Assembly (NCBI GenBank): GCA_963514005.1
Contig: OY740792.1
Location: forward strand, 21,080,001-21,144,000
Source of the DNA: Raja brachyura
Lineage: Eukaryota
DNA: 64,000 nt
Direction: 5' to 3'
Within the stretch, counting starts at the first letter, position 1; the number at the start of each line of letters is the position of its first letter. Of the stretch, positions 1-39,243 are shown piece after piece. The notes beneath the pieces were generated by a model. That model did not search any database. It was not told the origin of the DNA and saw only the letters and a program-made list of their open reading frames with translations. A program made the translations under genes and the position numbers.

Positions 1-1420
1 CAATAGCAAGAATGTCCTTCCTCAAATTAGGGGACCAAAACTGCACACAATACTCCAGGTGCGGTCTCACTAGGGCTCTGTACAACTGCAGAAGGACCTC
101 TTTGCTCCTATATTCGATTCCTCTTGTTATAAAGGCCAACATGCCATTCGCTTTCTTCACTGCCTGCTGTACCTGCATGCTTACTTTCATAGATTGATGT
201 ACAAGGACCCCCAGATCCCGTTGTACTTCCCCTTTTCCCAACTTGACCCCATTTGGATAGTAATCTGCCTTCCTGTTTTTGCTACCAAAGTGGATAAGCT
301 CACATTTATCCGCATTAAACTTCATCTGCCATGCATCTGCCCACTCCCCCAACCTGTACAAGTTACCCTGCATTCTCATAGCATCCTCCTCACAGTTCAC
401 ACTGCCATCCAGCTTTGTGTCATCTGCAAATTTGCTAATGTTACTTTGAATCCCTTCATCCAAATCATTGATGTATATTGTAAATAGCTGCGGTCCCAGC
501 ACCGTGCCTTGCGGTACCCCACTAGTCACTGCCTGCCATTCTGAAAGGGACCCATTAATCCCTACTCTTTGTTTCCTGTCTGCCAACCACTTCACTATTC
601 ATGTCAGCACTCTACCCCCAATACCATGTGCCCTAATTTTGCCCACTAATCTCCTATGTGGCACTTTATCAAATACTTTCTGAAAGTCCAGGCACACTAC
701 ATCCACTGGCTCTCCCTTGTCCATTTTCCTAGTTACATCTGCAAAAAATTCCAGAAGATTAGTCAAGCAGGATTTCCCCTTCGTAAATCCATGCCGACTC
801 GGACTGATCCTGTTACTGCTATCCAAATGTGCGGCTATCTCATCTTTTATAATTGACTCCAGCATTTTCCCCACCACTGATGTCAGGCTAACTGGTCTAT
901 AATTCCCCATTTTCTCTTTCCCGCCTTTCTTAAAAAGTGGGATAACATTAGCTACCCTCCAATCCACAGGAACTGACCCTCAGTCTATAGAACATTGGAA
1001 AATTATCACCAATGCATCCACGATTTCCAGAGCCACTTCCTTAAGTACCCTGGGATGCAGACCATCAGACCCTGGGGATTTATCAGCCTTCAGTCCCATC
1101 AGTCTCTCCAACACCATTTCCTGCCTAATGTGGATTTCCTTCCGTTCCCCTGTCACCCCAGATCCTCTGGCTACTACGATATCAGGAAGATTATTTGTGT
1201 CCTCCTTAGTGAAGACAGATCCAAAGTACCTGTTCAACTCATCTGCCATTTCCTTGTTCCTCATAATAAATTCACTTTTTTCAGTCTTCATGGGTCCAAC
1301 TTTGGTCTTAACTAATATTTTCCTCTTCACATACCTAAAGAAGCTTTCACTATCCTGCTTTATATTCTTAGCTAGCTTACCTTCGTACCTTATCTTTTCT
1401 CCCCGTATGGTCTTTTTGGT
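1..1420 (-). mobile_element. CR1-clade LINE ORF2 fragment (RT), 5'-truncated, inserted in an intron of the tandem array; runs off the window start
   Basis: Minus ORFs 980..1462 and 599..967 give KADKSPGSDGLHPRVLKE, NYRPVSLTSVVGK, HGFTKGKSCLTNLLEFF and DFQKVFDKVPH, typical CR1 ORF2. Array intron sequence resumes at ~1421. Confidence 0.92.
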
Positions 1421-1829
1421 TAAGTAGTTTCCTATGTATATTAGCATATTGAATACTATCATTATTTAATACAGTATGGGACAAAATCATCGAGCACATT
1501 TGAATGATACGAGAACCTAATAGAGCGATCCCATCAGTCCCATACCCCCTCGTATTTCCTTGCAACACTCACTCACATTGTTGCCAACAATGACGAAGCA
1601 AGTTAAGGAGAGACCATAACTGCACAGTATTTTGTGTTTTCCAGGCTCTTCCATGGGCTTACACACAACCAATCCAGATATTCATATAAATATTCATGTA
1701 AAAGCATAATGGCATCTGTGGCACATGTTCACACTTTTTTCCATAAATGTGATAAACCTAAGCATGCACTTTTGATGATTTGCTCCATTGCTTATTTCAA
1801 ACATAGAATACACATATTGTTAGGACTAC

Positions 1830-1973
1830 CTGAAAATTCTGCCTCTCCTATCTTAGCAGGTTCAAGTTCTGGGATTGGTTTGATCACACTGGGAATGTCT
1901 GTGGCTTGCCGTTCATAGCCAGATATTAAAGAGAACACTGTAGTTGTGTGAGAAGTTGACAATTCATGGTCTT
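1830..1973 (-). CDS. 144-nt phase-1 mucin-like repeat exon, unit 1 (EDHELSTSHTTTVFSLISGYERQATDIPSVIKPIPELEPAKIGEAEFS)
   Basis: Acceptor tttttatccgtag|AA, donor TCAG|gtagtc, open frame, 48 codons. Confidence 0.85.
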
Positions 1974-2442
1974 CTACGGATAAAAAGGAAGCCAAGTTAC
2001 AAAATTCTAAGCATCTTCTGAATGTACACCTGCACTAAGTAGTTCCCTATGAATACTAGCTAATTGAAAATAATCATTACTTAATTATTTAATGCAGTAA
2101 GGAACAAAGTCATCCAGCTCATTAGCATGATATGTGAACCAAACAGAGCGATCCCATCAGTCTCATACCGCCTCTTATTTCCTTGCAAGCCTCTCTCACA
2201 TTGTCGCCAACAATGACGAAGCAAGTTAAGGAAAGACAGCTAAGTGTACACTATGCTGTGTTTTGCATGCTCTTCCATGACTCACACATAGCCAATACAA
2301 ATATTCACATAAACACCTAGCATGCCATCTGTGGCACATGTCCAGAATTTTGTCCTTAATTGTGATAAACCTAAGCATGCACTTTTAATTATTTACTCCA
2401 TTGCTTATTTCAAACATGGAATACACATATTGTCAGAACTAC

Positions 2443-2586
2443 CTGTAACATCTGCCTCTCCTATCTTTGTAGGATCGGCTTCTGGGATTGGATTGATCAC
2501 ACTGGGAATGTCTGTGGCTTGCCGTTCATAACCAGATATTGAAGTGAACACTTTAGTCGTGTGTAAAGTTGATAATTCATGGTCTT
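2443..2586 (-). CDS. 144-nt phase-1 repeat exon, unit 2 (EDHELSTLHTTKVFTSISGYERQATDIPSVINPIPEADPTKIGEADVT)
   Basis: Acceptor ttttatccttag|AA, donor ACAG|gtagtt, open frame. Confidence 0.85.
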
Positions 2587-4401
2587 CTAAGGATAAAACG
2601 GAAGCCAAATTACAAAATTCTAAATATATTCTGAACATACACCTGTGCTGAGTAATTTCCTATGTATATTAGCATATTGAACACTATAATTATTTAATTA
2701 TTTAATACAGTATGCATCAAAATCATCCAGCTCATCTGAATGATACGAGAACCTAATAGAGCGATCCCATGAGTCCCATGTCCCCTCGTATTTCCTTGCA
2801 ACACTCACTCACATTGTTGCTAACAATGACGAAGCAAGTTAAGGAAAGACCATAAAGGCCCTTTCTCACGGTGCGAGTCATCCCACGAGTGACCCCAAGT
2901 GAAAGAAAAAAAAACAGACTCGTGGTTGTGTACGAGATCTCAAGTTTATGATCAAGTGTTTAACCGAGTTCCCACGGGTATATCAATGCTGCGATGTTCC
3001 AACTTACTCTCCCGAGTTAACAAGTTCCACTCCCGTTACTCTTGAGCCAACCGTGAATGAAGGTAAGTGTGTGAGGGGTGAGAAGTCCATGCCGGGTGCC
3101 GGCCGGCTGCAGCCGCTGTTCAGATTGTTGGGAGACGGAGCTCAGGGTTCGCCTCTTGAGCTGCTTTGGTGCCCAGGCGTAAGTTGAGGTGGAAGGTGGT
3201 TGGGGGTTGGTGGGAGGCTGACAGACAAGGCTCTTGGGTGCTGGGATCATTCTCTGTGGAATGGTCTTTGTGTGGGAGACATGTGTAGGAGAGGTGTGCT
3301 GACTGCAGGCAAACACTTTGGTAGTGATTGCCCACCAGTCTCAAAAGCCGCTGTGTCTCCCTCCACGTCCCCCTCCACGCCAACACAAAGGGCAACGATC
3401 CCACTTGTCAGCATTAAACTCCAGCCTCTTACCGACTTCATGTCGGCGACTATCCCAAGGCTTCAGACGGAAGGCAGACGCAACAAGCTGGAGTAACAAC
3501 GCGGGCCAGGTAACATCTCTGGAGAACGTGGGTAGGTGAAGGTGACGTTTCAGATAAGGGCTCATCTTCTGAAGAAGGATCTCGACCCACTGAATTACTC
3601 CAGCAGTGTTAAAGAAGGAACTGCAGATGCAGCAACATCGAGCGTACACAAAATTCTGAAGAAACTCAGCGGGTGCAGCAGCATCTATAGAGCGAAGGGA
3701 TGGGTGACAGAAGGGTCTCGACCTGCTGAAATTCTCCAGCATTTGGATCTAAACATCACCCATCCCTTCCCTTCAGAGATGCGGCCTGTCCCGCTGAGTT
3801 ACTCCAGCTTCTTTGTGTCCATCGTTGAATGGGTGACATTTCGGGTCGAGACCCTTCTTCGGACTGAAAATAAAACTTGCCTTGCGTGAAGCGGCTTGTA
3901 AATTAAAACATAAAAACAAGAAATGCTAAAGGTTGACTCATTTATGTGCTGCTATTCATTTACCTGGCCTGTTGCTGTCCTCCCTCGTCCACCGCGCTGG
4001 ATAAATCACCGGGTGCAAAACTCCGCTGCATCCTGGGCGGAGGGCGATGATCACCCGACTGACCGGCAAGTAGAGGCGGCGGGTCGGCCAAGCCCGGCTC
4101 CCCGCCACCGGGATAGACACCAACTACTGGAGTAAACTCAGCAGGGTCTCTGGAGAAGTCTGAAGTAGGGTCTCGACCTGAAATCTCACAAATCCCATCT
4201 CTCCAGAGATGCTGCCTGTCCCTCGGAGTTACTCCAGCATTGTGTGTGTCTATCTTCGGTGTAAACCAGCATCTGCAGTTCCTTCCCAATCCCACACTCT
4301 CGGCCCCGGGGGGTGGATGGAGCATCACACGTGGACACAACCCACTCACCGCCCCAGACTTGCCCCTCCGGTAGGTCTTTAACCGCGTCCTAAAGCCGTT
4401 C

Positions 4402-4592
4402 GTGTTAAAGAAGGAACTGCAGATGCTGGAGAATCGAGGGTTACACAAAAAGCTGGAGAAACTCAGCGGGTGCAGCAGCATGAAGAAGGTCAGCAGGTCT
4501 GAAGAAGGGTCTCGACCCGAAACGTCGCCTATCTCTTGCGCTCCTTAGATGCAGCTGCACCCGCTGAGTTTCTCCAGCTTTTTGTGTTATCC
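4402..4592 (+). mobile_element. Short Penelope-type (pLTR-derived) element with inverted arms and a hammerhead motif
   Basis: Same family as 43541..43766. Flanked by imperfect direct repeats taaagccgttc / tactgccgttc. Confidence 0.65.
4495..4530 (+). ncRNA. Minimal type I hammerhead ribozyme motif
   Basis: AGGU-CUGAAGA-A-GGGU(CUCG)ACCC-GAAA-CGUC-GCCU: conserved core, 4-bp stem II, palindromic ACGU stem III, GUC cleavage triplet and 4-bp stem I. Confidence 0.65.
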
Positions 4593-5363
4593 TACTGCCG
4601 TTCATTGAGACGAATACGAAGCCACGGGGCAGGTGCCTCAGTAATAAAGGACAAGTTGCAGATCATCGCAGAAAGGCCGAAGATAGACACAAAATGCTGG
4701 AGTGGGACAGGCCGCATCTCTGGAGAGAAGGAATGGGTGGCGTTTCGGGTAAGTCTGAAGAAGAGTCACGACTCCATTCCTTCTCTCCAGAGATGCTGCC
4801 TGGTCCGCTGAGTTTCTATCTTTGGGTCAGTCTTTACTCGAGCGAACGAACAGATTATAAGAAAGTTCCCACGGTAGACTTACGAGTCACTAAGGTAAAC
4901 GCACGGGCCACTACGTTACTACGAGTTTAAATGTTTCCATTTTTAACTTGAAGAGTTAATTTGACTCGTGGAAAAAATCAAACATGTTTGATTTTTTTCC
5001 ACGAGTTAACAAGCTTCCCGAGTACCTGCCGTTAGCGCCACGAGTCGATAAGTTGCTCGTGCGAGTTCCGACGTTCCCACGACGTGATCACCACGCGTGA
5101 AAACTCAGGGTCACTCGTGGGCCAACTCGCACCGTGAGACAGGGGTTTAAGTGCACAGTATGTTTGTGTTTTCCAGGCTCTTCCATGGGCTTACACACAA
5201 CCAATCCAAATATTCACATAAACGTTCATGTAAAAGCATAACATGGCATCTGTGGTACGTGTCCAGACTTTTTCCTTAATTGTGATAAATCTAAGAATGC
5301 ACTTTTTTATTATTTGCTCCATTGTTTACTTCAAACATAAAATACACAGATTGTTGGAACTAC

Positions 5364-5507
5364 CTGCAAATTCTGCCTGTCCTATCTTAGCAGGATCAGG
5401 TTCTGGGATTGGATTGATCACACTGGGAATGTCTGTGGCTTGCCGTTCGTAGCCAGATATTAAAGAGAACGCTGTAGTTGTGTGAGAAGTTGACAATTCA
5501 TGGTCTT
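5364..5507 (-). CDS. 144-nt phase-1 repeat exon, unit 3 (EDHELSTSHTTTAFSLISGYERQATDIPSVINPIPEPDPAKIGQAEFA)
   Basis: Acceptor ccttag|AA, donor GCAG|gtagtt, open frame. Confidence 0.85.
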
Positions 5508-5974
5508 CTAAGGATAAAATGGAAGCCAAGTTACACAATTCTAAACATCTTCTGAATGTGCACCTGCACCAAGTAGTTTCCTATGAATATTAGCACATTG
5601 TGAATAATCATCACTTAATTATTTAATACAGTAAGGAACAGTCATCCAGCTCATTAGAATTATATGAAAACCTAACAGAGCGATCCCATCAGTCTCATAC
5701 CGCCTCTTATTTCCTTGCAAGGCTCTCTCACATTGTCGCCAACAATGATGAAGCAAGTTAAGGAAAGACAGCTAAGTGTACAGTATGCTCTGTATTGCAT
5801 GCTCTTCCATGACTCACACATAGCCAATACAAATGTTAACATAAACGCCTAGCATGGCTTCTATGGCACCTGTCCAGAAATGTTTCCTTAATTATGATAA
5901 ACCTAACCATGCACTTCCATTTATTTTCTCCATTGCATATTTCAAACATAGAATACACATATTGTTAGAACTAC

Positions 5975-6118
5975 CTGTAAATTCTGCCTCTCCTATCTTA
6001 GCAGGATCGGTTTCTGGGATTGGATTAATCACACTGGGAATGTCTGTGGCTTGCCGTTCATAGGCAGATATAAAAGAGAACACTGTAGTTGTGTGCGAAG
6101 TTGACAATTCATGGTCTT
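5975..6118 (-). CDS. 144-nt phase-1 repeat exon, unit 4 (EDHELSTSHTTTVFSFISAYERQATDIPSVINPIPETDPAKIGEAEFT)
   Basis: Acceptor ccttag|AA, donor ACAG|gtagtt, open frame. Confidence 0.85.
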
Positions 6119-6323
6119 CTAAGGATAAAAAGTAAGCCAAATTACAAAATTCTAAACATCTTCTGAATGTACACCTGCACTAAGTTTCCTATGTATATTA
6201 GCACATTGTACATTATCATTACTTATTTATTTAATACAGTATGGAACAAAGTCATCCAACTCATTAGAAATATACGAGAACCTAACAGAGCAATCCCATC
6301 AGTCTCATACCACCTCATATTTC

Positions 6324-8101
6324 AATAGACAATAGACAATAGGTGCAGGAGTAGGCCATTCGGCTCTTTGAGGCACAACCGCCGTTCAATATGATCATGG
6401 CTGATTATCCACAATCAGTACCCCGCCTTCTCCCCATATCCCTTGGCTCCGCTATCTTTAAGAGCTGTATCTAACTCTCTTTTGAAAGCATCCAGAGAAC
6501 CTGCCTTCACCACCCTCAGGGAGGCACAGAATTCCACAGACTCACAACTCTCGGTGTGAAAAAGTATTTCCTCATCTCCATTCTAAATGGCTTACCACTT
6601 ACCACATGGTTTACCAGGAAAACATTCTTTACACAGAGAGTGGTGAGTCTCTGGAATTCTCTGCCACAGAAGGTAGTTGAGGCCAGTTCATTGGCTATAT
6701 TTAAGAGGGCGTTAGATGTGGCACTTGTGGCTAAAGGGATCAGGGGGTATGGAGAGAAGGCAGGTACGGGATACTGAGTTGGATGATCAGCCATGATCAC
6801 ATTGAATGGCGGTGCAGGCTCGAAGGGCCGAATGGCCTACTCCTGCACCTATTTTCTATGTTTCTATGTCTATGTTTAATCTTAAACTGTGGCCCCTGGT
6901 TCTGGACTCCCCCAACATCAGGAACATGTTTCCTGCCTCTAGTGTGTCCAAACCCTTAATAATCTTATATGTTTCAATAAGATCCCCTCTCATCCTTCTA
7001 AATTCCAGAGTATACAAGTCCAGCCGCTCCATTCTATCAACATAGGACAGTCCCGCCATCCCGGGAATTAACCTTGTGTACCTACGCTGCACTCCCTCAA
7101 TAGCAAGAATGTCCTTCCTCAAATTTGGAGACCAAAACTGCACACAGTACTCCAGGTGTAGTCTCACTAGGACCCTGGACCAGAAGGACCTCTTTGCTCA
7201 TATGCTCAACTCCTCTTGTTATGAAGGCCAACATGCCATTCGCTTTCTTCACTGCCCGCTGTGCCTGCATGTTTACTTTCAGTGACTGATGAACAAGGAC
7301 TCCCCAGATCCCGTTGTACTTCGCCTTTTTCCAACTTGTCACCAGTTAGATAATAATCTGCCTTCCTGTTTTTGCCACCGATGTGGATAACCTAACATTT
7401 ATCCACATTAAAATGCATCTGCCATGCAACCTGCCCACCCATCCAAACGGTCCAAGTCACCCTGCATCCTCATAGAATCCTCCACACATTTCACACTGCC
7501 ACCCAGCTTTGTGTCATCTGCAAATTTGCTAATGTTACTTTCAATGCCTTCATCTAAATCATTAATATATATTGTAAATAGCTGCGGTCCCAGCACGGAG
7601 CCTTGCGGTACCCCACTAGTCACTGCCTGCCATTCTGAAAGGGACCCATCAATCCCTACTCTGTTTCCTGCCTGCTAACCGATTTTCTATCCATGTCAGC
7701 ACACTACCCTTGTACCATGTGATCTAATTTTGCCCACTAATCTCCTATGTGGCACCTTATCAAATGCTTTCTGAAAGTCCAGGCACACCACATCCACTGG
7801 CTCTCCCCTGTCCATTTTCCCAGTTACATCCTCAAAAAATTCCAGAATATTAGTCAAGCATGATTTCCCCTTCATAAATCCATGCTGACTTGGACTGATC
7901 CTGCTACTGCAATCCAAATGTGCGGCTATTTCATCTTTTATAATTGACTCCAGCATCTTCCCCACCACAGACGACTGGCTAACTAGTCTATAATTCCCTG
8001 TTTTCTCTTTCCCTCCTTTCTTAAAAAGTGGGATAACATTAGCTACCCTCCAACCCACAGGAACTGATCCTGAATCTTTAGGATCCAATCCAAAGTACCT
8101 G
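6324..8101 (-). mobile_element. CR1 LINE (5'-truncated, frameshifted RT, 3' tail at left) inserted between units 4 and 5
   Basis: (caataga)n tail at 6323-6341. Minus ORFs give [31 protein letters not shown] and NYRLVSQSSVVGK. Array sequence resumes at ~8102. Confidence 0.9.
6610..6874 (+). mobile_element. Younger CR1 3' end nested in opposite orientation in the previous CR1
   Basis: FFTQRVVSLWNSLPQKVVEA...GY*, a 3' UTR and a ctatgtttctatgtctatg tail on plus. The host CR1 continues on both sides. Confidence 0.8.
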
Positions 8102-8377
8102 TTCCTTGCAACACTCTCTCACATTGTCGCCAACAACAAAGAAGCAAATTAAGGAAGGATATCTGTGTGTCGAGTATGTTTGTGTTTTCCAGGCTCTTCC
8201 ATATCTTACACACAACCAATACAAATATTCACATAAATATTCATGTAAAAGCATACCTGGCATCTGCGGCACATGTCCAGACTTTTTTCCTTAATTGTGA
8301 TAAACCTAAGCATGCACTTTTAATCATTTGCTCCATTGCTTACTTCAAACATAAAATACACAGATTGTTAGAACTAC

Positions 8378-8521
8378 CTGTAACATCTGTCTCTCCATTG
8401 TTAGTAGGATCGGGTTCTGGGATTGGATTGATCACACTGGGAATGTCTGTGGCTTGCCGTTCATAGCCAGATATTAAATTGAACACTTTAGTTGTGTGAG
8501 AAGTTGATAATTCATGGTCTT
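8378..8521 (-). CDS. 144-nt phase-1 repeat exon, unit 5 (EDHELSTSHTTKVFNLISGYERQATDIPSVINPIPEPDPTNNGETDVT)
   Basis: AG/GT intact, open frame. Confidence 0.85.
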
Positions 8522-8997
8522 CTAAGGATAAAAAGGAAGCCAGATTACAAATTCTAAATATCTTAAGAACATACACCTGCGCCAAGTAGTTTCCTATGTA
8601 TATTAGCACATTGAACACTACCATTACATAATTAATTAATACAGTATGGAACAAAATCATCCAGCACATTTGAATGATACAAGAAACTAATAGAGCGATC
8701 CCTTCAGTCCCATACCCCTCTTATTTCCTTGCAACACTCACTCACATTGTCGCCAACAATGACAAAGCAAGTTAAGGAAAGACCATAAGTGCAGTTTGTT
8801 TGTGTTTTCCAGGCTCTTCCAAGACTTACACGCAACCAATACAAATATTGACATAAATATTCATGTAAAAGCATAACATGGCATCTGTGGCACGTGTCCA
8901 GACTTTTTCCCTTAATTTTGATAAACATAAGCATGCACTTTTGATTATTTGCTCCATGCTTACTTCAAACATAAAATACACAGATTGTTAGAACTAC

Positions 8998-9141
8998 CTG
9001 TAACATCTGTCTCGACTATCTTAGTAGGATCGGATTCGGGGATTGGATTGATCACATTGGGAATGTCTGTGGCTTGCCGTTCATAGCCAGATATTAAAGT
9101 GAACAGTTTAGTTGTGCGAGAAGTTGATAATTCATCGTCTT
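8998..9141 (-). CDS. 144-nt phase-1 repeat exon, unit 6 (EDDELSTSRTTKLFTLISGYERQATDIPNVINPIPESDPTKIVETDVT)
   Basis: AG/GT intact, open frame. Confidence 0.85.
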
Positions 9142-9570
9142 CTAAGGATAAAAAGGAAGCCATATTACAAAATTCTAAATATCTTGTAAACGTACACCTG
9201 ATGCTTAGTAGTTTCCTATGTACATTAGCACACTGAACACTACCATGACTTAATTATTTAATACAGTACAGAACAAAGTCATTCCGCCCATTGGAATTGT
9301 ATGGTAACCTAACAGAGCAATCCCATCAGTCTCATACCGCCTCTTATTTCCTGGCAACGCTCTCTCACATTGTCGCCAACATGCTGTGTTTTGTATGTTC
9401 TTCCTTGCCTTACACATAACCAAAACAAATATTCACATAAACGCCTAGCATGGCATCTGTGGCACCTGTCCAGACAATTTTCCTTAATTATGATAAACCT
9501 AACCATGCACTTCCAATTATTTACTCCATTGCTTATTTCAAAAGTAGAATACACATATTGTTAAAACTAC

Positions 9571-9714
9571 CTGTAAATTCTGCCTCTCCTATCTTAGTAG
9601 AATCAGTTTCTGGGATTGGATTAGTCACACTGGGAATGTCTGTGGCTTGCCGTTCATAGCCAGATATTAAATTGAACACTTTAGTTGTGTGAGAAGTTGA
9701 CAGTTCATGGTCTT
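9571..9714 (-). CDS. 144-nt phase-1 repeat exon, unit 7 (EDHELSTSHTTKVFNLISGYERQATDIPSVTNPIPETDSTKIGEAEFT)
   Basis: AG/GT intact, open frame. Confidence 0.85.
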
Positions 9715-10196
9715 CTAAGGATAAAAAGTATGCCAAATCACAAAATTCTAAATATCTTCCAAACGTACACCTGACACTGAGTAGTTTCCTATGCATATTA
9801 GCACATTGAACACTACCATTAGTTAATTATTTATATAGTATGGAACAACGTCCTCCAGCTCCTGGGAATTATATGAGAACCTAATAGAGCGATTCCATCA
9901 GTCCCATACCGCCTGCTTTTTCCTTGCAACAATCACGCACATTTTTGCCAACAATGATGCAGCAAGTTAAGGATAGACATCTAAGGGTACAGTATGTTTC
10001 AGTTTTCCTGGCTCTTCCATGCCTTACACACAACCAACACAAATATTTACATAAATATTAATGTAAAAGCATAACATGGCATCTGTGGCACGTGTCCAGA
10101 TTTCTTTCCTTAATTGTGATAAACCTAAGCATGCACTTTTAATTTTTTACTCTATTGTTTACTTCAAACATAGAATACACATATTGTTAGGACTAC

Positions 10197-10340
10197 CTGT
10201 AAATTCTGCCTCTCTTATCTTAGCAGGATCAGGTTCTGGGATTGGATTGATCACACTGGGAATGTCTGTGGCTTGCTGCTCATGGCCAGATACTAAAGTG
10301 AACACTGTAGTTGTGTGAGAAGTTGACAGGTCATGGTCTT
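10197..10340 (-). CDS. 144-nt phase-1 repeat exon, unit 8 (EDHDLSTSHTTTVFTLVSGHEQQATDIPSVINPIPEPDPAKIREAEFT)
   Basis: Acceptor ccatag|AA, donor ACAG|gtagtc, open frame. Confidence 0.85.
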
Positions 10341-10769
10341 CTATGGATAAAAAGGAAGCCAAGTTACAAAATTCTAAATATCTTTTAAACGTACACCTGA
10401 CGTTTAGTAGTTTCCTATGTACATTAGTATATTGAACACTACCATTACTTAATTATTTAATACAGTACAGAACAAAGTCATCCCGCCCATTGGAATTATT
10501 TGGGAACCTAACAGAGCAATCCCATCAGTCTCATACCGCCTCTTATTTCCTGGCAACGCTCTCTCACATTGTCGCCAACATGCTGTGTTTTGTATGTTCT
10601 TCCTTGCCTTACACATAACCAAAAGAAATATTCACATAAACGCCTAGCATGGCATCTGTGGCACCTGTCCAGACAATTTTCCTTAATTATGATAAACCTA
10701 ACCATGCACTTCCAATTATTTACTCCATTACTTATTTCAAAAATAGAATACACATATTGTTAAAACTAC

Positions 10770-10913
10770 CTGTAAATTCTGCCTCTCCTATCTTAGTAGA
10801 ATCGGTTTCTGGGATTGGATTAGTCACACTGGGAATGTCTGTGGCTTGCCATTCATAGCCAGATATTAAATTGAACACTGTAGTTGTGTGAGAAGTTGAC
10901 AGTTCATGGTCTT
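10770..10913 (-). CDS. 144-nt phase-1 repeat exon, unit 9 (EDHELSTSHTTTVFNLISGYEWQATDIPSVTNPIPETDSTKIGEAEFT)
   Basis: AG/GT intact, open frame. Confidence 0.85.
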
Positions 10914-12293
10914 CTAAGGATAAAAAGGAAGCCAAATTACACAATTCTAAATATCTTTTAAACGTACACCTGACGTTTAGTAGTTTCCTATGTACATTAG
11001 TATATTGAACACTACCATTACTTAATGATTTAATACAGTACGAAACAAGGTCATCCAGCCCATTTGAATTATATGGGAACCTAACAGAGCAATCCCATCA
11101 GTTCCATACCACCCCTTATTTCCTTACAACACTCACTCACATGCCAACAAGTCACCTCTCATTCTTTTGCCACTTACAGTACTTACATTAGAGTTATTGA
11201 TTGCGCTTATTGAGAAACAAGAGACTGTATATGCTGAAATCTTGAGAAAGAAACAAACAGCTGAAGGAATTCAAGGGGTCAGGAAGCAACCAATTAGGGG
11301 AATGGACAGAGAATGTTTTGGGTCGGGACCCTTGCTTGGACTGGGGTGAAGGGGAGATTGCTGCTAGAAAGAGGTGATGGGTTTGTGGTGATTGCCCTCT
11401 ACTCCACCAGTCTGAAGACGGGCCTCAATCTGAAATGTCATCTGTCCATTTCCCTTCACAGGTAATGTATGTTCCACTGAGTTCAACCAACAGTTTGTGT
11501 TCAGCACATTTTGAGTTGGGCTAATAAACTGCAGCATCTAGAGAAAATGCATATTGTCACATGAAGAATGTTAACTCCACAAATAGAATAATTTTGGGCA
11601 CCATATTGGAGGAAGGATGTACCAGGATTGTGCCCAACAAATTTGAAGCAATGGTGATATATATCGACGTCAAATTGGTGTATGGCTGGGAGGGCAACTT
11701 CGAAATGGTGATCTTCCCATGTTTTCCTGCCTTCATCATTCTAGCTGGAAGTGATTGTGGGCTTGGAAGCTGCTGTCTATGGAATTGTGGTGAGTTGCTG
11801 CAACACATCCTGTCGACAGTACAAACTCTTGCTACAACGCATCAGTGGTGAAGTAGGTGATGTGTTTTGGACTAGGCTGCCTATCAGGTGGGCTACTATG
11901 TCCTGTATAAAAGCCTGCTTGTTTGTTGAATGCTGTTGAAGCTGCACTCATCCAGGCAAGTGGAGAGTATTCCATCATGCTCCTGATCTATTCCCCATTA
12001 CCTCATTATCCTTCTCAATTGCAGAGCACAAATTTCATGAAAGAAGCACATTGATTAAATAATTCAGCAGGTACATGGAAATCCATTAATTCCACAAGGA
12101 GTGCATTGGACTTCTTATTTCCTATAATTGGCGCCAAGGCTTTGCATGAGTTGAACGCAAAACAGTGAAGCAACAAATGCCCCCTATGCATAATCATTTA
12201 GATATAGGCTTCACACAAGTGACCTGAACACATAGTTTTTATAGTACAGCATTCTGGAGCTCACACCCAAGACACAAGTAATGTCGAAAGTAC

Positions 12294-12437
12294 CTGTGAC
12301 TTCACTAAATCTTATTTTAGTTGGTTCAAATTTTATGGCTGGGTTCAACACATGTGGAGGAGAGTCAGATACTGGCTGCTTATGACCTGGCAGTAAGGTG
12401 ACCACATTAGGAGTTTTTGAAGATGATACTGTATGGT
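12294..12437 (-). CDS. Diverged 144-nt phase-1 exon (DHTVSSSKTPNVVTLLPGHKQPVSDSPPHVLNPAIKFEPTKIRFSEVT)
   Basis: Acceptor tttatttcctcag|AC, donor ACAG|gtactt. Homologous to the young unit. Confidence 0.8.
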
Positions 12438-13069
12438 CTGAGGAAATAAAAAGGTAGCACGATTTTTTAAAACGTCTCCCATGTAAACATCCCCAAGGTA
12501 CCACAAAATAAATACTCCCTTTACGATAAAACATTAAAGGAATTCCAACACAAACACAAATTGACAATATACTTTTCATAAAACAATCCATAGATATTAA
12601 CAAATTAATTATTTACAGAAAATGTTGCACTTGAGTGAGATGACAACAGACAGTCCATGCATAATATTGCTTCCACAACCCAAAAGCCAATGATAATCTG
12701 AAAAGCTTTGATGTAAAGTAGATTTAATAAAATGAATGACAAATTATAGCCAAGTGCAATCTATAAACTAGATGAGGAAGGGACATTGACAAGTAATGCG
12801 TCAGAAAAAAGCAAAGGTGGTTCAAGTCTTTGTGAATTGCAGTGGATTGTTCATTCCATATAAATTGTGCAACTGGAATGAATGGATTCCATGCAAGACA
12901 ATGACAGCATGTACATCTCCCACGCAGACTGACTGAACACTAAACTAGAAAGGAGTGGCATGGCAACTGCAGCATGTGTCTCCACTTTCAGACACTTGAG
13001 CACAAATTTCAACATGCAACTATGATTTACCTCATCCCCAAGTTCAGACACAAATATTGTCAGAAGTAC

Positions 13070-13207
13070 CTGTAACTTCAGTAACTCGTATTTTAGTTGG
13101 TACAGATTCAGGGATCGAAGTGAACACAGGAGTGTCAATGATTTGTGGTTTAGACCCTGAACTTGTTCTGAACATGTTAGGAGTGTCAGCGGTTGGCTCC
13201 ATGTAGC
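13070..13207 (-). CDS. 138-nt phase-1 exon (GYMEPTADTPNMFRTSSGSKPQIIDTPVFTSIPESVPTKIRVTEVT)
   Basis: Acceptor tcttattccccag|GC, donor ACAG|gtactt, open frame (not the frame shown in the ORF track). Confidence 0.8.
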
Positions 13208-13980
13208 CTGGGGAATAAGAAAGAAGCCAGACACAAAAATTCTTAACCCCGCATTAAAATAAATCATTTATTATTTTGCTGATATTGTTTGATTCCTCTA
13301 TGCCATTAGAATATTAAATAAACCAAAAGATCATTCATTCATTATATAAACATACATATTCAAGTGCAACCATTTATTATGAAAAATATTTTTCTTTTCT
13401 TTTGCTGATAAACAATGAATAATTAATTGCATGTATCTCATAATGCATCAAATATGAGTGATTTAACAATTAGTAATCCATGCAATATTGTTTCACTACA
13501 TCAAAGCTAATTATCATTCACTAAATTTCACAACGATAAAACCATGATCCATTCACAAACACTGAACAGCCAAACAAACTCCAAAGTCAATAAGTAAGCG
13601 CATTGACAAACTAAACCAACAAAGATAGGCAAGATGGTAAATACAGATATGCAGTGGATTGCTCCCTTTATATATGGTATGAATTGACACTGAATGAGGT
13701 GCAACAAAGATTCGCACAAACTAACAAATGCACCTATAAGCACAGCATTTTAATGCAAATTTCAGACAAAGGTCTACAAATTCAATCACTTTGGATTTGA
13801 CGTTGTGAACGGTTGATGAGTAACAAAAGCAGTACACAGACACAAACTGTCATGTGTGGCAGCGAGGCCCATGAACTGTTATAGAACATAGAACAGTGAA
13901 GCACAAGAACAGGCCCTTCAGCCAAACATGATGCTAGACAATCTCTTATCTACCTACACATAATACATAACCCTCCATTT

Positions 13981-14212
13981 AGAAACATAGACATAGAAAT
14001 TAGGTGCAGGAGTAGGCCATTCGGCCCTTTGAGCCTGCACCGCCATTCAATATGATCATGGCTGATCATCCAACTCAGTTTCCCGTACCTGCCTTCTCTC
14101 CATACCCTCTGATCCCCTTAGCCACAAGGGCCACATCTAACTCCCTCTTAAATATAGCCAATGAACTGGCCTCAACTACCCTCTGTGGCAAAGAGTTCCA
14201 GAGACCCACCAC
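13981..14212 (-). mobile_element. CR1 3'-end fragment within older LINE/SINE debris (~13880-14420)
   Basis: agaaacatagacatagaaa tail; LWNSLPQRVVEASSLAIFKRELD on minus. Confidence 0.8.
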
Positions 14213-15344
14213 TTCTTGCCTATCCATATGCTGATTCAAAAGTCTCTTTAATGCCACTATCATATTCGTCTCAAGCACTACCCCCCCGGCTTTGTATTCC
14301 ACCCTCTGCGTAAAAACCTGCCCCGCACATCTCCTTTAAACTTTGCCCCTCTCACCTGAAAGGCTAGATCCTCTAGTATTTGATTTTTCCATCCTATCTA
14401 TGCCGTTCATAATTTTAAGCTGCATCATAACCTCCGGACTCTTACACTCAATGCCCCGACATATGACAGCAAGCATATCATATGCCTTCTTTATCACTTG
14501 GAATCATCTTGCAGGATGCTTGATTGAAAGCTGAAAGAGGGGTGTGGAGGTGTGGATGTTGGCTGTTTGGAGAAGTCAATGGTTGACTGCGGTCTGGGAG
14601 AAGTGTCTCAAGGGATAAAAAATGGACAGGCAGAGACAGGAATATTGTAACAGAGCAGGGAGAGGGGTAGCGGGTTGCTGCAGGGATGTGTCCAGAGTTA
14701 ATTGAGTTGTAGAGAGTGTAGGAATCTGATTGGGGTACATGGATAGGATGGTATTTGAACGCCCCTTCGGGGTCTTGGGAGTGCAGGATTGAAAGTCCAA
14801 TTAAGTCATGGCTGTGTTGGTATTCAGTGGTGAGTTGAAGCGGCTATGAGGCAATGGTGTGGCATTAGCTAAAGGTCATCATTTGGTTAAGGAGTAGGGG
14901 CTGGGGGTCTGTTGGTTGAGTGAGATGGGTGGGTTGGCAGAGCATGATGAGAGCTAGTAGCTAACTAAATTAATATTCCCCTGCTCAAATTGGGCTCCTA
15001 GTGTTGGGAAGGTCTCATTTAAGAGAGCTTTCTTTAAATCAAGCTATTAAAGAAATAGCAGAATTGTAAAAATCTGGTTGTTCCTAGTGTGTCCAAGGGT
15101 AGGCACATGTTTGTATTAGCTCGTGCCGGTCAAATCTTTAAAGGGGCATTGCACCAGAATGATAATGGAAATAGCATCAAATCACTAGTGGAAATGGCTG
15201 GTCATATTTGTCCCTGAAATGGTCACAAGTGTGTTGCAATCCAGACACAATCAATTTTCATGCAACTGAATTTCTAAGCTGAAGTTTAAACTTTTAATTT
15301 AGCACAAATGCGAACAAACAACATACAAACGTGGTCAATAATAC

Positions 15345-15482
15345 TTGTAACATCAGCATCTCTTGTTATAGCTTTTACAGATTTGGGGTTTGGATTGAAC
15401 ACATATGGAGAGTCAAAGACCAAGAAGTTATGCCCTAACCATAATGGTTTCCATTGAACCATTGATAGTAATATATGTCCGT
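15345..15482 (-). pseudogene. Probable dead copy of the repeat exon (acceptor AG replaced by AA)
   Basis: Open 138-nt frame ending DSPYVFNPNPKSVKAITRDADVT with donor ACAA|gtatta. The pyrimidine tract ends ttctatAA rather than AG. Confidence 0.55.
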
Positions 15483-15957
15483 TTATAGAATGCAAAAGTG
15501 TGCAGAATAAAACACCCTTTATCATTAGAGTAAATTTAAGTGGATGCTATGGAATACCAAAATTATGTAATTAATTATTTTCATACATGACTAAATAATT
15601 AATTACTTAATTTTCAGCCAAATAAATGTATTATTCTGAAGATTTCTGATGAAAGAGCTAATAAGCAGACAGTCCATGCAGCAACACAATATAAAGACCA
15701 ATTATTATTCACCAATTAGAACAAATTTAGTACCAAATTGAAAGTTTACAGTCAAGCACACTCTTTAAACTTCAAGAAAAACACTGGTCAAATGATCTAA
15801 CAGAAAAAAGTACTACATTTAAAATTCCTACATTAACTGTGCAAGGTGTGGTATAGCATTTACAGCATATGTCCTTGCTCTATTATTTTACACAATTCTC
15901 AACAGGCAACTACTCCAACCCTGGGTTCACAAAAAAACATGAATATCCTCAAAATAC

Positions 15958-16098
15958 CTGCAACATCAACAACTGGCCTGTAAGCTCGTTCTGATGCTGG
16001 AATTCTATTGAATAAATTAGGTGGCTTGGTGGGTTTTAGTTTACAGCTAGAGAGCAATTTGAAGAAATGAGTAGTATTAGAGGGTGGCATTGTATAGA
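15958..16098 (-). CDS. 141-nt phase-1 exon (VYTMPPSNTTHFFKLLSSCKLKPTKPPNLFNRIPASERAYRPVVDVA)
   Basis: Acceptor ttatcccttcag|TC, donor GCAG|gtattt, open frame. Confidence 0.7.
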
Positions 16099-16740
16099 CT
16101 GAAGGGATAAGACAAAAAGGCAGATACGAAATTCTTAATTTCTCATTAAAATAGTCACTTGTTTTGATGAATGTATTTCTTTACTGTTATGATTAATTGT
16201 ATTACATCACACCATTCTTCACCAATGTACCACCAATTCAGTCTCATCCATAAACTTACTAACAATGCAACTATATTCTCATCCCAATTGTTAATGTAGG
16301 TGACAAATAACAATGGGCCCAGCACCGATCTTACAGATCTTCAACCTGAAAAACAACTCTCCACCTATCACCCTCTGACATGTACCACCACCAACAAATA
16401 TTTTTGCACACTTCTTTTATATCATTACAATGTCATACCTTTGCAGAATAAATCTCATTTATTCCTTATACCATTGAATAGGTTCCTATTCACTCATAAT
16501 TCTGTGTTAAATTAGTCAGATTACAAAGAATGCAATGCCTATTTCAAGGAATTAGGCAATGTACTGTTCATTTTTTTCAATATATTTAACTTACTGCATG
16601 CAAGATTCATACAGGCTAACAAACATGTCTCACAAAAGTAACAAACATTAATTAACTGTGAATAGAAGATAGAGGTTGTGCAGCAGGTTTCCTAATTTTC
16701 TCACAATTTAACAACAAGACAGACACATTGTCGGAAGTAC

Positions 16741-16857
16741 CTGTAACTTCAGGACGTTCAGATTGTGCGATTGGATTGAACATGCAAGGGTTTGGCAGCT
16801 TAGAGCCTGATATTACAGTAATCGATTTAGGAGTGTGAAAGGTTGACATGGCATGGT
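16741..16857 (-). CDS. 117-nt phase-1 exon (DHAMSTFHTPKSITVISGSKLPNPCMFNPIAQSERPEVT)
   Basis: Acceptor ttattcccctcag|AC, donor ACAG|gtactt. Confidence 0.78.
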
Positions 16858-17437
16858 CTGAGGGGAATAAGAAGGAATTATGAAACAAATATTGTAATTC
16901 CCCATTGAGATAACGCACCCATGCATTCAAGAATTCAATTGTATTTATAGACATCATTAGAATAAAGTATTATTGCAGAAAAAAATCCTCCTTTTTGATA
17001 CAATAACAATAAATATCTCCCATGGCAAACATAAATTGCTGAATGCATGTTCAAGCAATACAGAGTAATCCATAATATAACGAGCAATATATTAATTTAA
17101 CATAATTCCAGATGTTTTAGTTAACTGTTATCGTAAGAGATATTCCATGCAACATTATGCAATCACTTGTAAAGGTTGATTAACACTTGACAGCTAAGCA
17201 CAATCTATAAATATGAAGGATGCACATTGCACAATAATTGTGCAACGATGCACAATAATTAAACAGAATGTTGACACTTAAGCTCATTTAACTTGGCAAA
17301 TAGATTCCAAGGTTTGTCAAATACATTTCATGCCCAAGGCAACCGATATTTGTGTTACTTTTGGATAAAACTCAGCATGCAAGTATTATTTATTTCATCA
17401 TGAAGTTGCGATCAAAATTGAAATATTGTCAAAGCAC

Positions 17438-17661
17438 ATGTGACCTCTATAAATCTGAAGAAGGGTCTCGACCCGAAACGTTGCCTATTTCCTTCGCTCC
17501 ATAGGTGCTGCCTCACCCGCTGAGTTTCTCCAGCATTCTTATCTACCTTCTATAAATTGAAAGGTAGTTGGCTCAGTTGCTGGAACATCTTGGCCATATT
17601 GGGAGTGTCAGTGGTTTGTTGTTTAGAACATGAGATTAATAGGAGTATCAATGATTGGTTT
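17438..17661 (-). pseudogene. Dead repeat exon interrupted by a Penelope-type insertion
   Basis: Flanks match the family (aaatattgtcaaag..., ggaataagaaagaatccagatactaaattcttaa). In-frame stops, degraded donor, insertion at 17455-17548. Confidence 0.6.
17455..17548 (+). mobile_element. Short Penelope-type insertion starting at a hammerhead core
   Basis: ctgaagaagggtctcgacccgaaacgtt...; 9-bp TSD tctataaat (17446-54 / 17549-57). Confidence 0.7.
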
Positions 17662-17961
17662 CTTAAGGAATAAGAAAGAATCCAGATACTAAATTCTTAA
17701 TCTTTCATTAAATTACAACAAACAAGCAGTTCACATAGCATCATTGTTGCTATCTAACAATATAGCCATAATTGGTTAACAGAGCCAGGCACACATTGAG
17801 CTCTATGAAAAAACAGCATTTACCAACTAACTCCATCAAGGATAAGCAAAATCTTATATCTCAGAAGATATGCAGTGAATTGTTCATTTCATAGAATTGT
17901 GCCTTTACATAATTAAACCACACAATATTTTCAACTGAGACACAAACATTCTCACATGTAC

Positions 17962-18102
17962 CTGTAGGTTCGATATCACTTATCGTAACAGATTCTGGTT
18001 CTGGGATTGGATAGATCACATTAGGGGTGTCAGTAACTGGAATTTCATGGTCTGCCATTAAAGTGGACACATTATTTATGTCAAACATTGGCACCTCATA
18101 GT
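17962..18102 (-). CDS. 141-nt phase-1 exon (DYEVPMFDINNVSTLMADHEIPVTDTPNVIYPIPEPESVTISDIEPT)
   Basis: Acceptor ttatcccctcag|AC, donor ACAG|gtacat, open frame. Confidence 0.8.
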
Positions 18103-18399
18103 CTGAGGGGATAAGAAGGAAATAATAGAAAATTCTTAATCTCACTTAAAGTTACACACATTCTTCCGATGACTATTGAAAACCAAAGCTATGTAGCAAA
18201 TGTAGTAAAATTGCCTTATTCTTGAGTTTTGATTAAACAGAATGAAATGTATGTAACTAATTTTTCATCTAAAAAACTATGCAAAAGATGTTAATAATAA
18301 CATTGTTAAAAAAAAGTGAGACAAATTAACGTAAATGTTTAATGAAATCTCATGAAATGTAATAACAAATAATGATAAAAAAGCCATTCACCCATTTAC

Positions 18400-19820: not shown

Positions 19821-21179
19821 TTGAAGTCAGTTTCACAGAGTCATAAAGTGATACAGTGTGGGAATCAAGCCTTTCGGTCCAACTTGCCCATAGCAGCCAG
19901 CATGTCCCAGCTATACTAGTCCCACCTGCCAGCATTTGGTCCATATCCTTCCAAACCTGTCCTATCCATGTTTCTGGGTAAGAGCAAGTAGAATGTTGCT
20001 TGGAGAACTGTGAGATCAGGGAAAATGAACTCTGAGCTGTATCAATACCGATATTTGCCTAACTCGGCTTCATTGGAAAATAGCACTGTTTTGGAATTGA
20101 TCTTATTCTCTGATTTCAAAATTGGAACAATTCCCAAGTTAGAACTACTGTATTTAGTCATGTCATAAAATCATGAACAATGCTTAGTCATTATGGTAAT
20201 TAATTAAATATTATTTAAAATAACCAGTACAAAAGCAATATGAAAACAAATGGAAAACCAAACAATGTCAAATATTTTTCATTCAAGCCATAACTGGCTG
20301 TTAGACATTTTAGACCCAAGCACAGTCACCAAGCTTCATGAAGTGAATTGTTTGATCACAGAATTCAACGCACAACACACAATAAGTGCTGAAATATGAT
20401 GAATAATGCAGCAAATTGCTATTTTCCCCCCAAAATTATTTTGTACAGTGACAAATGAGAATCATGCAAGACAGTGAAGTGCCAACAAATATGCATTATG
20501 AAAAGTACAATGAACATTAAATCAACTAAGAAGGTGCAGCATAGCATCTATGTGGCATACTATTTGATACCATGCAAACCTGAACAAATCCTGTTAATTA
20601 TTTAGTACATTCCTGAGTATATACCAGGAATGGAACTCCCATATTATTTTCAAATATTGTGATTGAACTGAACACATTAGGAATGCCAAAGTTTGGTCCC
20701 TCATAGTCTGCAGCTGACAATAAGGAAGCCAAATAAAAAGTCTTAAATTGTCAGGAAGATAAATGTTCCACTGTGCATCATTATAACGTAACCAGATTGT
20801 ATCATTGGTCTTATTCTTTCACCATAAAAACATTCAATATACAGTATTCAGATGTGCACCATGTGGTCTCTTACAATATTAAATTATACACAACATTTCA
20901 CTCATTAATTCAAATTCTTCAAAATAATTCATGCTGGCAATAATTTTTTCACTACAGAAAAACTAATTAAGACCCAATAAACTTCACAATGTAGCCTCGA
21001 AGAAATGACAACCAATTTACAGCCAAACAGCCATTAATGAAATGTTGACCAAATATTCCAACAAAAAAATGCTCCATCATCCAAAATTTCCACTAAAATG
21101 TTAGCAGTTCTGAGTGGAACTGCAGAACCAGGGAATTCAGAACTACTGTACATGCTTGCATGCATGTAGAAATCCAGAT

Positions 21180-22398: not shown

Positions 22399-22515
22399 CT
22401 GTTGGTTCAGTATCTGTGCTCTGTGTGATTGGATTGAACACCTGTGAAGAGTCGGAGGCCACCAACTCATTGTCTGACATTAAAGTGAACACTTTAGAAG
22501 TGTCAAAGGATGGCA
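22399..22515 (-). CDS. 117-nt phase-1 exon (VPSFDTSKVFTLMSDNELVASDSSQVFNPITQSTDTEPT)
   Basis: Acceptor ttcttttcctcttag|TG, donor ACAG|gtactt. Confidence 0.8.
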
Positions 22516-24067: not shown

Positions 24068-24142
24068 CTGTGGATTCGTTCTCTTCAGGGTTATCAACAT
24101 CATACACAGTAACCGGAGTGTCAGAATCTAGTTGTGCATAAT
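24068..24142 (-). CDS. 75-nt phase-1 exon (DYAQLDSDTPVTVYDVDNPEENEST)
   Basis: Acceptor tttttgttatctag|AT, donor ACAG|gtattc, open frame. Confidence 0.7.
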
Positions 24143-28594: not shown

Positions 28595-28678
28595 CTGCAA
28601 ATGGCTGTTGAACTTTCTTGTCTGCATCAGTAATTGGATTTGAAGTGATGAGGGCTTTACTCGTGGTGAATGATGATT
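28595..28678 (-). CDS. 84-nt phase-1 exon (ESSFTTSKALITSNPITDADKKVQQPFA)
   Basis: Acceptor T-run...catgctag|AA, donor GCAG|gtaatt, open frame. Confidence 0.68.
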
Positions 28679-31897: not shown

Positions 31898-31984
31898 CTG
31901 TGGATTGTTTTGGTTCCACTGCATCATCTTTAGATGATTCTAAAGAGTTGACAGGCGAACTGCTCAAGAATGGTTTCCCAAATT
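31898..31984 (-). CDS. 87-nt phase-1 exon (EFGKPFLSSSPVNSLESSKDDAVEPKQST)
   Basis: Acceptor gttccag|AA, donor ACAG|gtattc, open frame. Confidence 0.7.
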
Positions 31985-32463
31985 CTGGAACTTATTCAGA
32001 GAATACAAATAAAGCATTTATTTTACCAACTGGACTGTTTTGCATGGTATCAAATAAGATGTGAAAATGTATAGCATACCTTATTCAAAACCACATAAAT
32101 ATATGCAGAGCAGTGGCCAAGCATGATGGAATACATTGATCAAGCTAAGCAGTACTCTGGAGTAATCTGATACATTTAAATTACACCTCCATGCAAATTG
32201 TTCACTTAATAATGTGATTCATGCAAATGGTCATTGATACATTGATACCTGACTGAAGCTAGATTCTAAAGCTAAAATATATAGGTTTGCTTACCAAACT
32301 AATCCTAATGTATTGCACTGCGTGATTGCATATTGGCTTATTGATGCATTTTGCCACTTTCCATCTTTCAAGAGCAAGAAAGCACATAGATAATGTGTCT
32401 GCATTCCAGTGGTGAACAGGACAATGAAGTGTGCATCCATGCCATAGCTTATCTACATACTAC

Positions 32464-32553
32464 CTGAAATCTGCTCCCGTTGTGGAGGATCAAATTCATA
32501 AATTGTATTTGAGGTGGTGAAAAATGAATTGGCGGTGGGTTCAACCACACGTT
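32464..32553 (-). CDS. 90-nt phase-1 exon (ERVVEPTANSFFTTSNTIYEFDPPQREQIS)
   Basis: Acceptor attgcag|AA, donor TCAG|gtagta, open frame. Confidence 0.7.
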
Positions 32554-34677: not shown

Positions 34678-34767
34678 CTGTGAATTGTTTATTATTCATA
34701 TTATCAGGTGCTGAGGTTGTGGGTGAATAGATGTAAAATGCATCACTGGAGGATGGTTCCTCATACT
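34678..34767 (-). pseudogene. Repeat exon with a defective acceptor or homopolymer frameshift (YEEPSSSDAFYIYSPTTSAPDNMNNKQFT)
   Basis: Family donor TTCACAG|gtagtt and family-like peptide, but the in-phase acceptor position reads cccAA. Confidence 0.5.
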
Positions 34768-35421: not shown

Positions 35422-35505
35422 CTGTGAACCACTCTGTGTGCACGGCCTCAGGGTTGGAAACCGTATCTGAACTGGACGAAAATGAACTAGTACTGGATGG
35501 AAGCT
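35422..35505 (-). CDS. 84-nt phase-1 exon (ELPSSTSSFSSSSDTVSNPEAVHTEWFT)
   Basis: Acceptor attacag|AG, donor ACAG|gtagat. Confidence 0.75.
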
Positions 35506-35944: not shown

Positions 35945-36025
35945 CTGTGAATATCTCCGTGTCCATAGTAACTGATTCAGGAACTGGATTGAGAGAGGAG
36001 GTGCTGGAGTATCGTATTTTAGGCT
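35945..36025 (-). CDS. 81-nt phase-1 exon (EPKIRYSSTSSLNPVPESVTMDTEIFT)
   Basis: Acceptor tttctctgaaatgcattacag|AG, donor ACAG|gtagtt. Confidence 0.75.
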
Positions 36026-38355: not shown

Positions 38356-39243
38356 AGGGCCTGTCCCACCAGCATGCGACTCCATGCAGTGAGCACGACC
38401 AAACTGGAAGCGGGGGCCGCGCGGAGGTCAGGTGATCCCCGTACAGGGCCGGTCCCACCAGCATGCGCCTGCATGCGACGAGTGCGACCAAACCGGCAGC
38501 GGGGGCCGCGCGGAGGTCGTGTGACTGACGCGACGTGGCGCGAAGTTGGAGCGAAGTCCGCGGTAAGTTCACAAGGACAGAGAGGGACACACAGAGAGGG
38601 TCGCGGAGGCACACAGAGAGGGTCATGGAGGCACATATAGAGAGGGTCATGGAGGCACATATAGAGAGGGTCACGGAGGCACACAGAGAGGCTCACGGAG
38701 CCACAGAGGGAGGGTCACGGAAGCACAGAGAGAGGGTCATGGAGGCACACATATAGAGAGAGGCATGGAGGCACACAGAGAGAGGGCCACGGAGGCACAC
38801 AGACAGGGTCACGGAGGCACATATCGAGAAGGTCACGGAGGAACACAGAGAGGCTCACGGAGCCACAGAGAGAAAGTCACGGAAGCACAGAGAGAGGGTC
38901 ATGGAGGCACACATATAGAGAGAGGCACGGAGGCACACAGAGAGAGGGCCACGGAGGCACACAGAGAGGGTCACGGAGGCACATATAGAGAGGGTCACGG
39001 AGGCACGATGTCGAGGCGGTGCGTAATGCGTCAAGGTGGCTGCGGGCCGACAGGCCGTTGCTGCGTGGAATTTTTGGACACGGTCAGTTTTTCGGAGCCC
39101 TGCGCGATTTTGGGACCAGCCCCGCACAACTCTATACGGCTCCAGCGATCGAAGTGGGACCGGCCCCGCGAGGCCGGACGGCTCAAGCGACCACGTTAGG
39201 TTGCGCTCACCGCATGGAGTCGCATGCTGGTGGGACAGGCCCT
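38356..39243. mobile_element. PIF/Harbinger MITE with internal minisatellite
   Basis: TIR agggcctgtcccaccagcatgcgactccatgc / gcatggagtcgcatgctggtgggacaggccct; TAA at 38353-55 and 39244-46. Confidence 0.88.
38580..39006 (+). repeat. ~22-26-bp minisatellite (gagagggtcacggaggcacaca variants)
   Basis: Many imperfect tandem copies visible directly. Confidence 0.9.

Follow-up and report, generated by a model that had tools for sequence, protein, structure and literature searches.

A tandem array of in-frame exons in the probable ABI3BP gene of the skate Raja brachyura

The DNA described here, 64,000 nucleotides (nt) of the skate Raja brachyura (NCBI GenBank assembly GCA_963514005.1, contig OY740792.1, positions 21,080,001 to 21,144,000; hereafter the window, to which all coordinates refer), carries toward its left end a direct repeat with nine full copies in 1421-11150. 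Each copy holds one exon of 144 nt on the minus strand, phase 1-1, free of stops and bounded by AG and GT. That there are nine such open exons with both splice sites had been proposed in a sequence-only reading of the window, and we found it to hold in 9/9 copies. The gene, which that reading did not name, is in all probability ABI3BP (Target of Nesh-SH3, TARSH), as judged by collinear exons. The parts of the array are the following, the nine exons being all of 144 nt and phase 1-1:

10770-10913, minus strand, exon E1 (first transcribed), putative ABI3BP middle region
10197-10340, minus strand, exon E2
9571-9714, minus strand, exon E3, a young duplicate of E1
8998-9141, minus strand, exon E4
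8378-8521, minus strand, exon E5
5975-6118, minus strand, exon E6
5364-5507, minus strand, exon E7
2443-2586, minus strand, exon E8
1830-1973, minus strand, exon E9
1421-1829, minus strand, intron after E9, cut about 63 nt short of the next expected acceptor by the element at 1-1420
10914-11150, minus strand, partial first unit, the 3' half of the repeated intron

With transposons removed, the eight complete units measure 573-626 bp, in line with the earlier estimate of about 600 bp, and the array introns 429-482 nt; the upper boundary of the array, 11150, falls in mid-intron. Exon and flanking intron are homologous head-to-tail and the phase is symmetric, as in a tandem exon duplication. Tandem Repeats Finder, with a period limit of 500, did not report the array. 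We counted 21 distinct gap intervals in the intron alignment and 0 in the exons. The introns after E1 and E3 share a deletion of 42 alignment columns (about 41 nt), which had been correctly placed near 9380 and 10580 but sized at about 37 nt, and a 12-nt gap is common to four array introns. E1 and E3 differ by 2.1% in the exon and by 4.0% in the following intron. The exon core, described earlier as nearly invariant, is indeed conserved, but 6 of its 16 codons vary, four of them with an amino-acid change; similarly, there is a partial unit at the left end, but it is the intron after E9, 1421-1829, rather than 1421-1630. All nine array exons also have a tandem acceptor, a second AG 3 nt downstream, use of which would add or drop one residue, and single-residue isoform differences are seen among homologous models.

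Three transposon insertions had been attributed to the array. Two lie inside it, whereas the third, at the left edge, does not:

1-1420, minus strand, fragment of a retroelement without long terminal repeats (non-LTR), at the left edge, with a reverse transcriptase (Pfam RVT_1)
2856-5147, no strand assigned, 2.3-kb insertion bounded by 37-bp terminal inverted repeats that are 89% alike, TAA at both flanks and nested pieces resembling short interspersed elements (SINEs)
6323-8101, minus strand, another non-LTR retroelement fragment, inside the E5-E6 intron

The fragment at 6323-8101 is 89% identical to that at 1-1420 over 992 nt and sits at a different place in the unit. The retroelement at 1-1420 is presumably of the CR1 type, and the insertion at 2856-5147 presumably PIF/Harbinger-like, judged by its target site.

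A profile of 15 window exons led to 11 proteins, all of them elasmobranch models with a TARSH-type set of Pfam domains, and 7 of these 11 first-search proteins are named ABI3BP or Target of Nesh-SH3. The full profile search gave 12 matches, the best being isoform X26 of Amblyraja radiata ABI3BP, which carries TARSH_C (E 7.7e-50) and two fibronectin type III (fn3) matches. Two prokaryotic matches among the 12 (E ~7e-4 and ~9e-4) were treated as chance and were excluded from the trees, as were four small matches (P0016, P0018, P0019, P0020) that resemble single ABI3BP exons read from genomic DNA. Eighteen single-copy window exons are collinear with Amblyraja ABI3BP (505/553 residues identical, 91%), and collinearity with X26 runs from residue ~250 up to the array. 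Over 15 exons, identity is 91% with Amblyraja, 92% with Leucoraja and 90% with Rhinoraja, which marks the window as skate DNA distinct from all three models; the single-copy exons, where alignable, are ~72% identical to those of Mobula and Hemitrygon. It weighs against the assignment that the fn3 and TARSH domains lie outside the window, so that family membership rests on collinear linker exons. Pfam assigned neither of the two exon peptides tried to a family. The candidates CD44, CD45 and a true mucin were dropped after the homologue search had returned ABI3BP-type models.

The array is implicit in existing RefSeq models of skate ABI3BP (XP_032888575.1, Amblyraja radiata; XP_055500955.1, Leucoraja erinacea, "mucin-2"; XP_078265648.1, Rhinoraja longicauda), which combine Pfam PF21731 TARSH_C with fn3. 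These models have the same exon order, single-copy exons 90-92% identical to ours, and a 48-residue unit amplified at the same place. They differ from the window in unit number and order, with 11-16 units against at least nine here, and the E1/E3 pair is particular to the R. brachyura window. The Leucoraja orthologue carries a TARSH_C match despite its "mucin-2" label, a misleading name that the array explains.

Could nine exons have stayed intact by chance? When the exon was allowed to evolve neutrally on the intron tree at intron rates (4000 runs), all nine copies were stop-free in 5.2% of the runs, had intact splice sites in 10.7%, and met both conditions in 0.48%. Once indels were included at the intron rate, with 9 to 21 events counted, the probability that 9/9 exons stay intact fell to between 3e-4 and 7e-6. 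Hence, selection keeps the frame and the splice sites of the array exons, in agreement with the sequence-only reading, which had supposed that the coding expansion was selected for its frame. Decayed paralogous exons near 15346, 17574 and 20590 indicate that copies in ABI3BP can die. The comparison of exons with introns suggested by that reading also agrees, with a mean pairwise difference of 14.7% in introns and 10.1% in exons, in addition to the gap counts given above. In the core, nonsynonymous differences were 1.25 against 5.2 under neutrality, and 0/1500 runs were as low; over codons 1-19 they were likewise below neutral (P = 0.015).

Some results are less favorable to constraint on the protein itself. 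Pairwise synonymous divergence (dS) was 0.129 and nonsynonymous divergence (dN) 0.106, and the maximum-likelihood (ML) ratio omega, at 0.87, 0.79, 0.70 and 1.41 by partition (0.87 overall, 0.70 for the core), nowhere differed from 1 (P 0.40-0.59); the power of this test, with 9 x 47 codons, is low. Constraint on the core protein thus rests on the intron comparison. Synonymous differences were also somewhat low (P = 0.045), so some of the core conservation may reflect gene conversion or splicing signals. The units are, moreover, mosaic: a compatibility statistic was 0.20 vs 0.31, a value reached by 0/1000 permutations, and exon and intron distances were uncorrelated among units. Unequal crossing-over and conversion predict such mosaics, and recombination between units weakens a simulation based on a single intron tree.

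The last 12 codons of the exon had been noted to vary mostly by amino-acid changes, and one might suppose that they were positively selected, for example to bind partners or to resist proteases or parasites. Their pairwise dN/dS of 1.52 would fit this, as would consensus agreement over 49 skate units, which falls from 96% in the core to 75% in the tail. However, nonsynonymous differences in these codons (4.9 observed vs 3.9 simulated) are not in significant excess (P = 0.12), the ML omega of 1.41 has P = 0.49, and part of the variation goes back to two old tail types that each of the four skates has and that have been shuffled from unit to unit. We therefore consider adaptive diversification improbable: the variable tail evolves neutrally, with no sign of positive selection.

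Copies of the unit were counted in the returned isoforms of predicted models, so that the figures are minimum genomic counts. Amblyraja has 13 units in isoforms X25 and X26 and 8 in X30; Leucoraja 16 in X1 and X4 and 15 in X5; Rhinoraja 11 in six of the nine isoforms examined, 10 in two and 9 in one; Mobula birostris and Hemitrygon have one each. Copy number differs between the species' models (11, 13, 16), a contrast weakened by its dependence on predicted models. Searching the available Narcine, Cetorhinus, Stegostoma and Hemiscyllium models with a skate unit pattern gave 0 units; as the pattern is skate-specific and the Narcine model partial, these zeros show no loss. Of the 147 linker units placed in a tree, 24 formed one clade (support 98): the 9 of the window, 13 of Amblyraja and the 2 single units of the stingray lineage. 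Skate units intermingle in the trees, including one with four skates; the sequences are short and the inner branches weak. Both tail types are shared by the four skates, and their near-perfect alternation in Leucoraja suggests a two-unit higher-order repeat.

The expansion had been called young. The window units, however, share 79% mutual protein identity (68-96%), less than the 90-92% of single-copy exons between skate orthologues of two families, so that the expansion is old and only some duplications are young. Rhinoraja belongs to the Arhynchobatidae, Amblyraja to the Rajidae and Hemitrygon to the Myliobatiformes; amplification thus began after the stingray split and before the skate families diverged. 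Turnover is ongoing, with some young duplications such as E1/E3 (2% apart), and Amblyraja has four identical units in succession. We claim no absolute age, since no skate-family date was found in passages of a phylogenomics preprint.

The most probable history is as follows. The folded parts of ABI3BP are fibronectin-III regions at both ends and a TARSH domain at the C terminus; between them runs a long, acidic, Ser/Thr/Pro-rich linker made up of small symmetric (phase 1-1) exons. In a skate ancestor, one linker exon and half of each flanking intron were duplicated, after which unequal crossing-over and gene conversion added, removed and shuffled units in each skate lineage. With 144 nt and phase 1-1 in every unit, the frame stays the same however many are spliced in. 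Selection purges stops, frameshifts and lost splice sites while tolerating most changes of amino acid. This would probably lengthen the disordered spacer that separates the folded ends, a spacer likely to be O-glycosylated; exon skipping might vary its length as well, with units presumably included in series. The units contain 34% S/T/P, 17% D/E and 5% K/R, compared with a S/T/P content of 23-25% in the folded ends of the Amblyraja orthologue, so that their enrichment is moderate. AlphaFold2 predicted no secondary structure for one unit (predicted template modeling score 0.13), but folding 47 residues is a weak test, and both disorder and glycosylation of the spacer should be taken as conjectural.

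Parts of the stretch occur in 20 of the 22 sequencing runs listed, none of which is recorded as RNA, and contigs of four runs were compared with 8150-18200. The flanks match run X1 with 0-1 differences over kilobase contigs and run X3 with <1% difference, implying a sound assembly around the array; X1 could itself be the source and adds no independent support. Its contig depth, 35-100 over the array vs 10-19 on the single-copy flanks, yields no copy number and was not used. A 417-nt X1 contig placed at 9566-9990 has letters at 9619 and 9673 that are absent from all nine exons and is 8 nt shorter than its placement, like the intron after E9. This contig, whose letters were seen only in part, would represent a tenth unit, either further along the array or from the last intron in uninterrupted form. 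Since, in addition, the post-array Amblyraja exons and C-terminal domains have no orthologue within the 64-kb window, the earlier suggestion that the array continues past the window is upheld. The left-edge retroelement at 1-1420 may itself be polymorphic, because the X1 contig with a net 8-nt deletion like that of the E9 intron continues uninterrupted into an exon; a further paralogous unit explains this equally well.

Splice joints were read from contig pieces, SINE matches having filled the joint table. In run X19, a 1050-nt contig joins 17962-18105, 16740-16857 and 13070-13206 across introns but leaves out the intact exon at 15958; a second contig, of 151 nt, equals 10770-10915 with one difference and ends at the borders of exon E1; the intronic bin 9830-10165 has no X19 cover. 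Several facts detract from X19 as a witness to splicing of the array: it covers one intronic position, 8764, it is RNA by guess only, it comes from a differently labelled organism, and near-identical units cannot be told apart in it. Furthermore, no contig of the four runs over 8150-18200 joins two array exons.

The abrupt ends of the E1 contig are what many alternative neighbours would cause, and thus bear on another explanation, namely that the units form a mutually exclusive cluster from which one or few enter each transcript, diversifying the linker rather than lengthening it. A precedent exists in human ABI3BP, where 10 mutually exclusive exon candidates of frame 1-1 are reported (PMC5740500). 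However, near-identical neighbours also break short-read contigs at exon borders, the models of three skates hold 8-16 units in series, introns of 429-482 nt pose no steric bar, and with 144-nt exons joint inclusion carries no frame penalty. Mutual exclusion accordingly seems quite unlikely to us. Still less credible is an assembly artefact, or a neutral satellite-like amplification with exons intact by chance or homogenisation, for although gene conversion is evident and can keep copies alike, and no single contig spans the array, intron sequences differ by 4-19% between units, which also have insertions of their own, the array is present in three other assemblies, the gaps (21 intervals) fall in introns and none in exons, and decay of nearby older paralogous exons shows that copies can degenerate at this locus.

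We thus regard it as very probable that the array is a linker-exon array of skate ABI3BP, born of an ancestral duplication, remodeled by unequal crossing-over and conversion, kept in frame by selection and presumably leading to a longer spacer. The array is real and explained, and is an exon expansion of a kind known from human ABI3BP. A duplicated cluster of 10 exons is described in the human gene, and mouse and rat have lost it (Hatje et al. 2017, PMC5740500). Both clusters consist of tandem phase 1-1 exons in the disordered middle of ABI3BP and show lineage-specific gain or loss. Compared by description only, two human exons are of 63 and 93 nt and K/R/P-rich, whereas the skate unit is acidic and has 144 nt; mutual exclusion is the description given for the human cluster, whereas the skate models include units in series.

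Mucin function can be gained through exonic repeats rich in proline, threonine and serine (PTS) in secreted proteins (Pajic et al. 2022, PMC9417175). Here, too, a secreted protein gains S/T/P-rich repeats of variable copy number; unlike in those cases, each skate repeat is its own exon with an intron, which means that splicing can change repeat number, and the S/T/P content is a moderate 34%, with glycosylation only presumed. Tandem exon duplication is common in animals (Ivanov and Pervouchine 2022, PMC9013439), and copying of an exon with flanking intron inside a gene is what we see as well; ABI3BP is not named in that paper's main text. What ABI3BP does in the matrix is largely unknown, though it has been linked to adhesion and to integrin beta-1 (PMC6426741). 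In human cartilage and stromal cells, the disordered middle of the protein undergoes alternative splicing (PMC9239745, PMC13518942). The literature searched held nothing on the skate array and no usable data on ABI3BP glycans; most subscription journals and preprint supplements, which may mention the array, were outside its coverage.

The mechanism of duplication is ordinary in itself. The array offers a clean, datable case of coding exons that stay in frame across two skate families while copies turn over. They do so in a matrix protein of poorly known function (PMC6426741), the disordered middle of which shows differential splicing in human cartilage disease (PMC9239745). The point to follow is the repeated amplification of different linker exons in cartilaginous fishes, which we did not find in the literature searched. 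An exon single in Amblyraja and Narcine has four near-identical copies in Mobula and three in Hemitrygon (clade of 7, support 96). In the 147-unit tree, Callorhinchus has its own clade of 12 units and Stegostoma has alternating units. One may speculate, with more doubt than confidence, that ABI3BP is a recurrent "exon accordion" of cartilaginous fishes, selection having repeatedly favored a longer, acidic, splice-tunable spacer between folded ends. On this view, different exons of the linker family were expanded in the skates, in stingrays and mantas, in carpet sharks and in the elephant shark; a tie to the mechanics of a permanently cartilaginous skeleton is possible. If this were true, the effects of linker length could be tested on the skate array as on a natural allelic series, given that its two alternating tail types have been kept in two families.

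Beyond the array, the window contains the following other linker exons:

12294-12437, 13070-13207, 15958-16098, 16741-16857, 17962-18102 and 22399-22515, minus strand, older paralogous exons, intact
~15346-15500, 17574-17663 and 20590-20708, minus strand, decayed paralogous exons with donor sites lost or frames broken
24068-55820, minus strand, further short phase 1-1 exons, collinear with Amblyraja residues ~253-670
24068-24142, 28595-28678, 31898-31990, 32464-32553, 35422-35505, 35945-36025 and 39398-39478, minus strand, examples of the further exons (first half)
41458-41547, 44271-44360, 45266-45334, 46566-46634, 52493-52573, 55233-55301 and 55758-55820, minus strand, examples of the further exons (second half)

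The exon at 15958-16098 (minus strand) has intact AG and GT, yet it is skipped in the spliced X19 contig and missing from Amblyraja X26; in the tree it clusters, by a long branch, with a unit of Narcine, and it may be rarely used or decaying. Another, at 34678-34767 (minus strand), matches a unit in the Rhinoraja, Mobula and Hemitrygon models, but its acceptor region is a run of A in which the in-frame AG seems to be missing; the unit is absent from Amblyraja X26 and Leucoraja X4 and was possibly lost in Rajidae. At 59530-59650 there is an acceptor-like end on the minus strand with no match to tiles of the homologous proteins, possibly non-coding. By eye, further insertions with long terminal inverted repeats lie at 38356-39245, 61966-62390 and 63090-63700, and a 22-bp minisatellite occupies 38588-39006 within one of the three.

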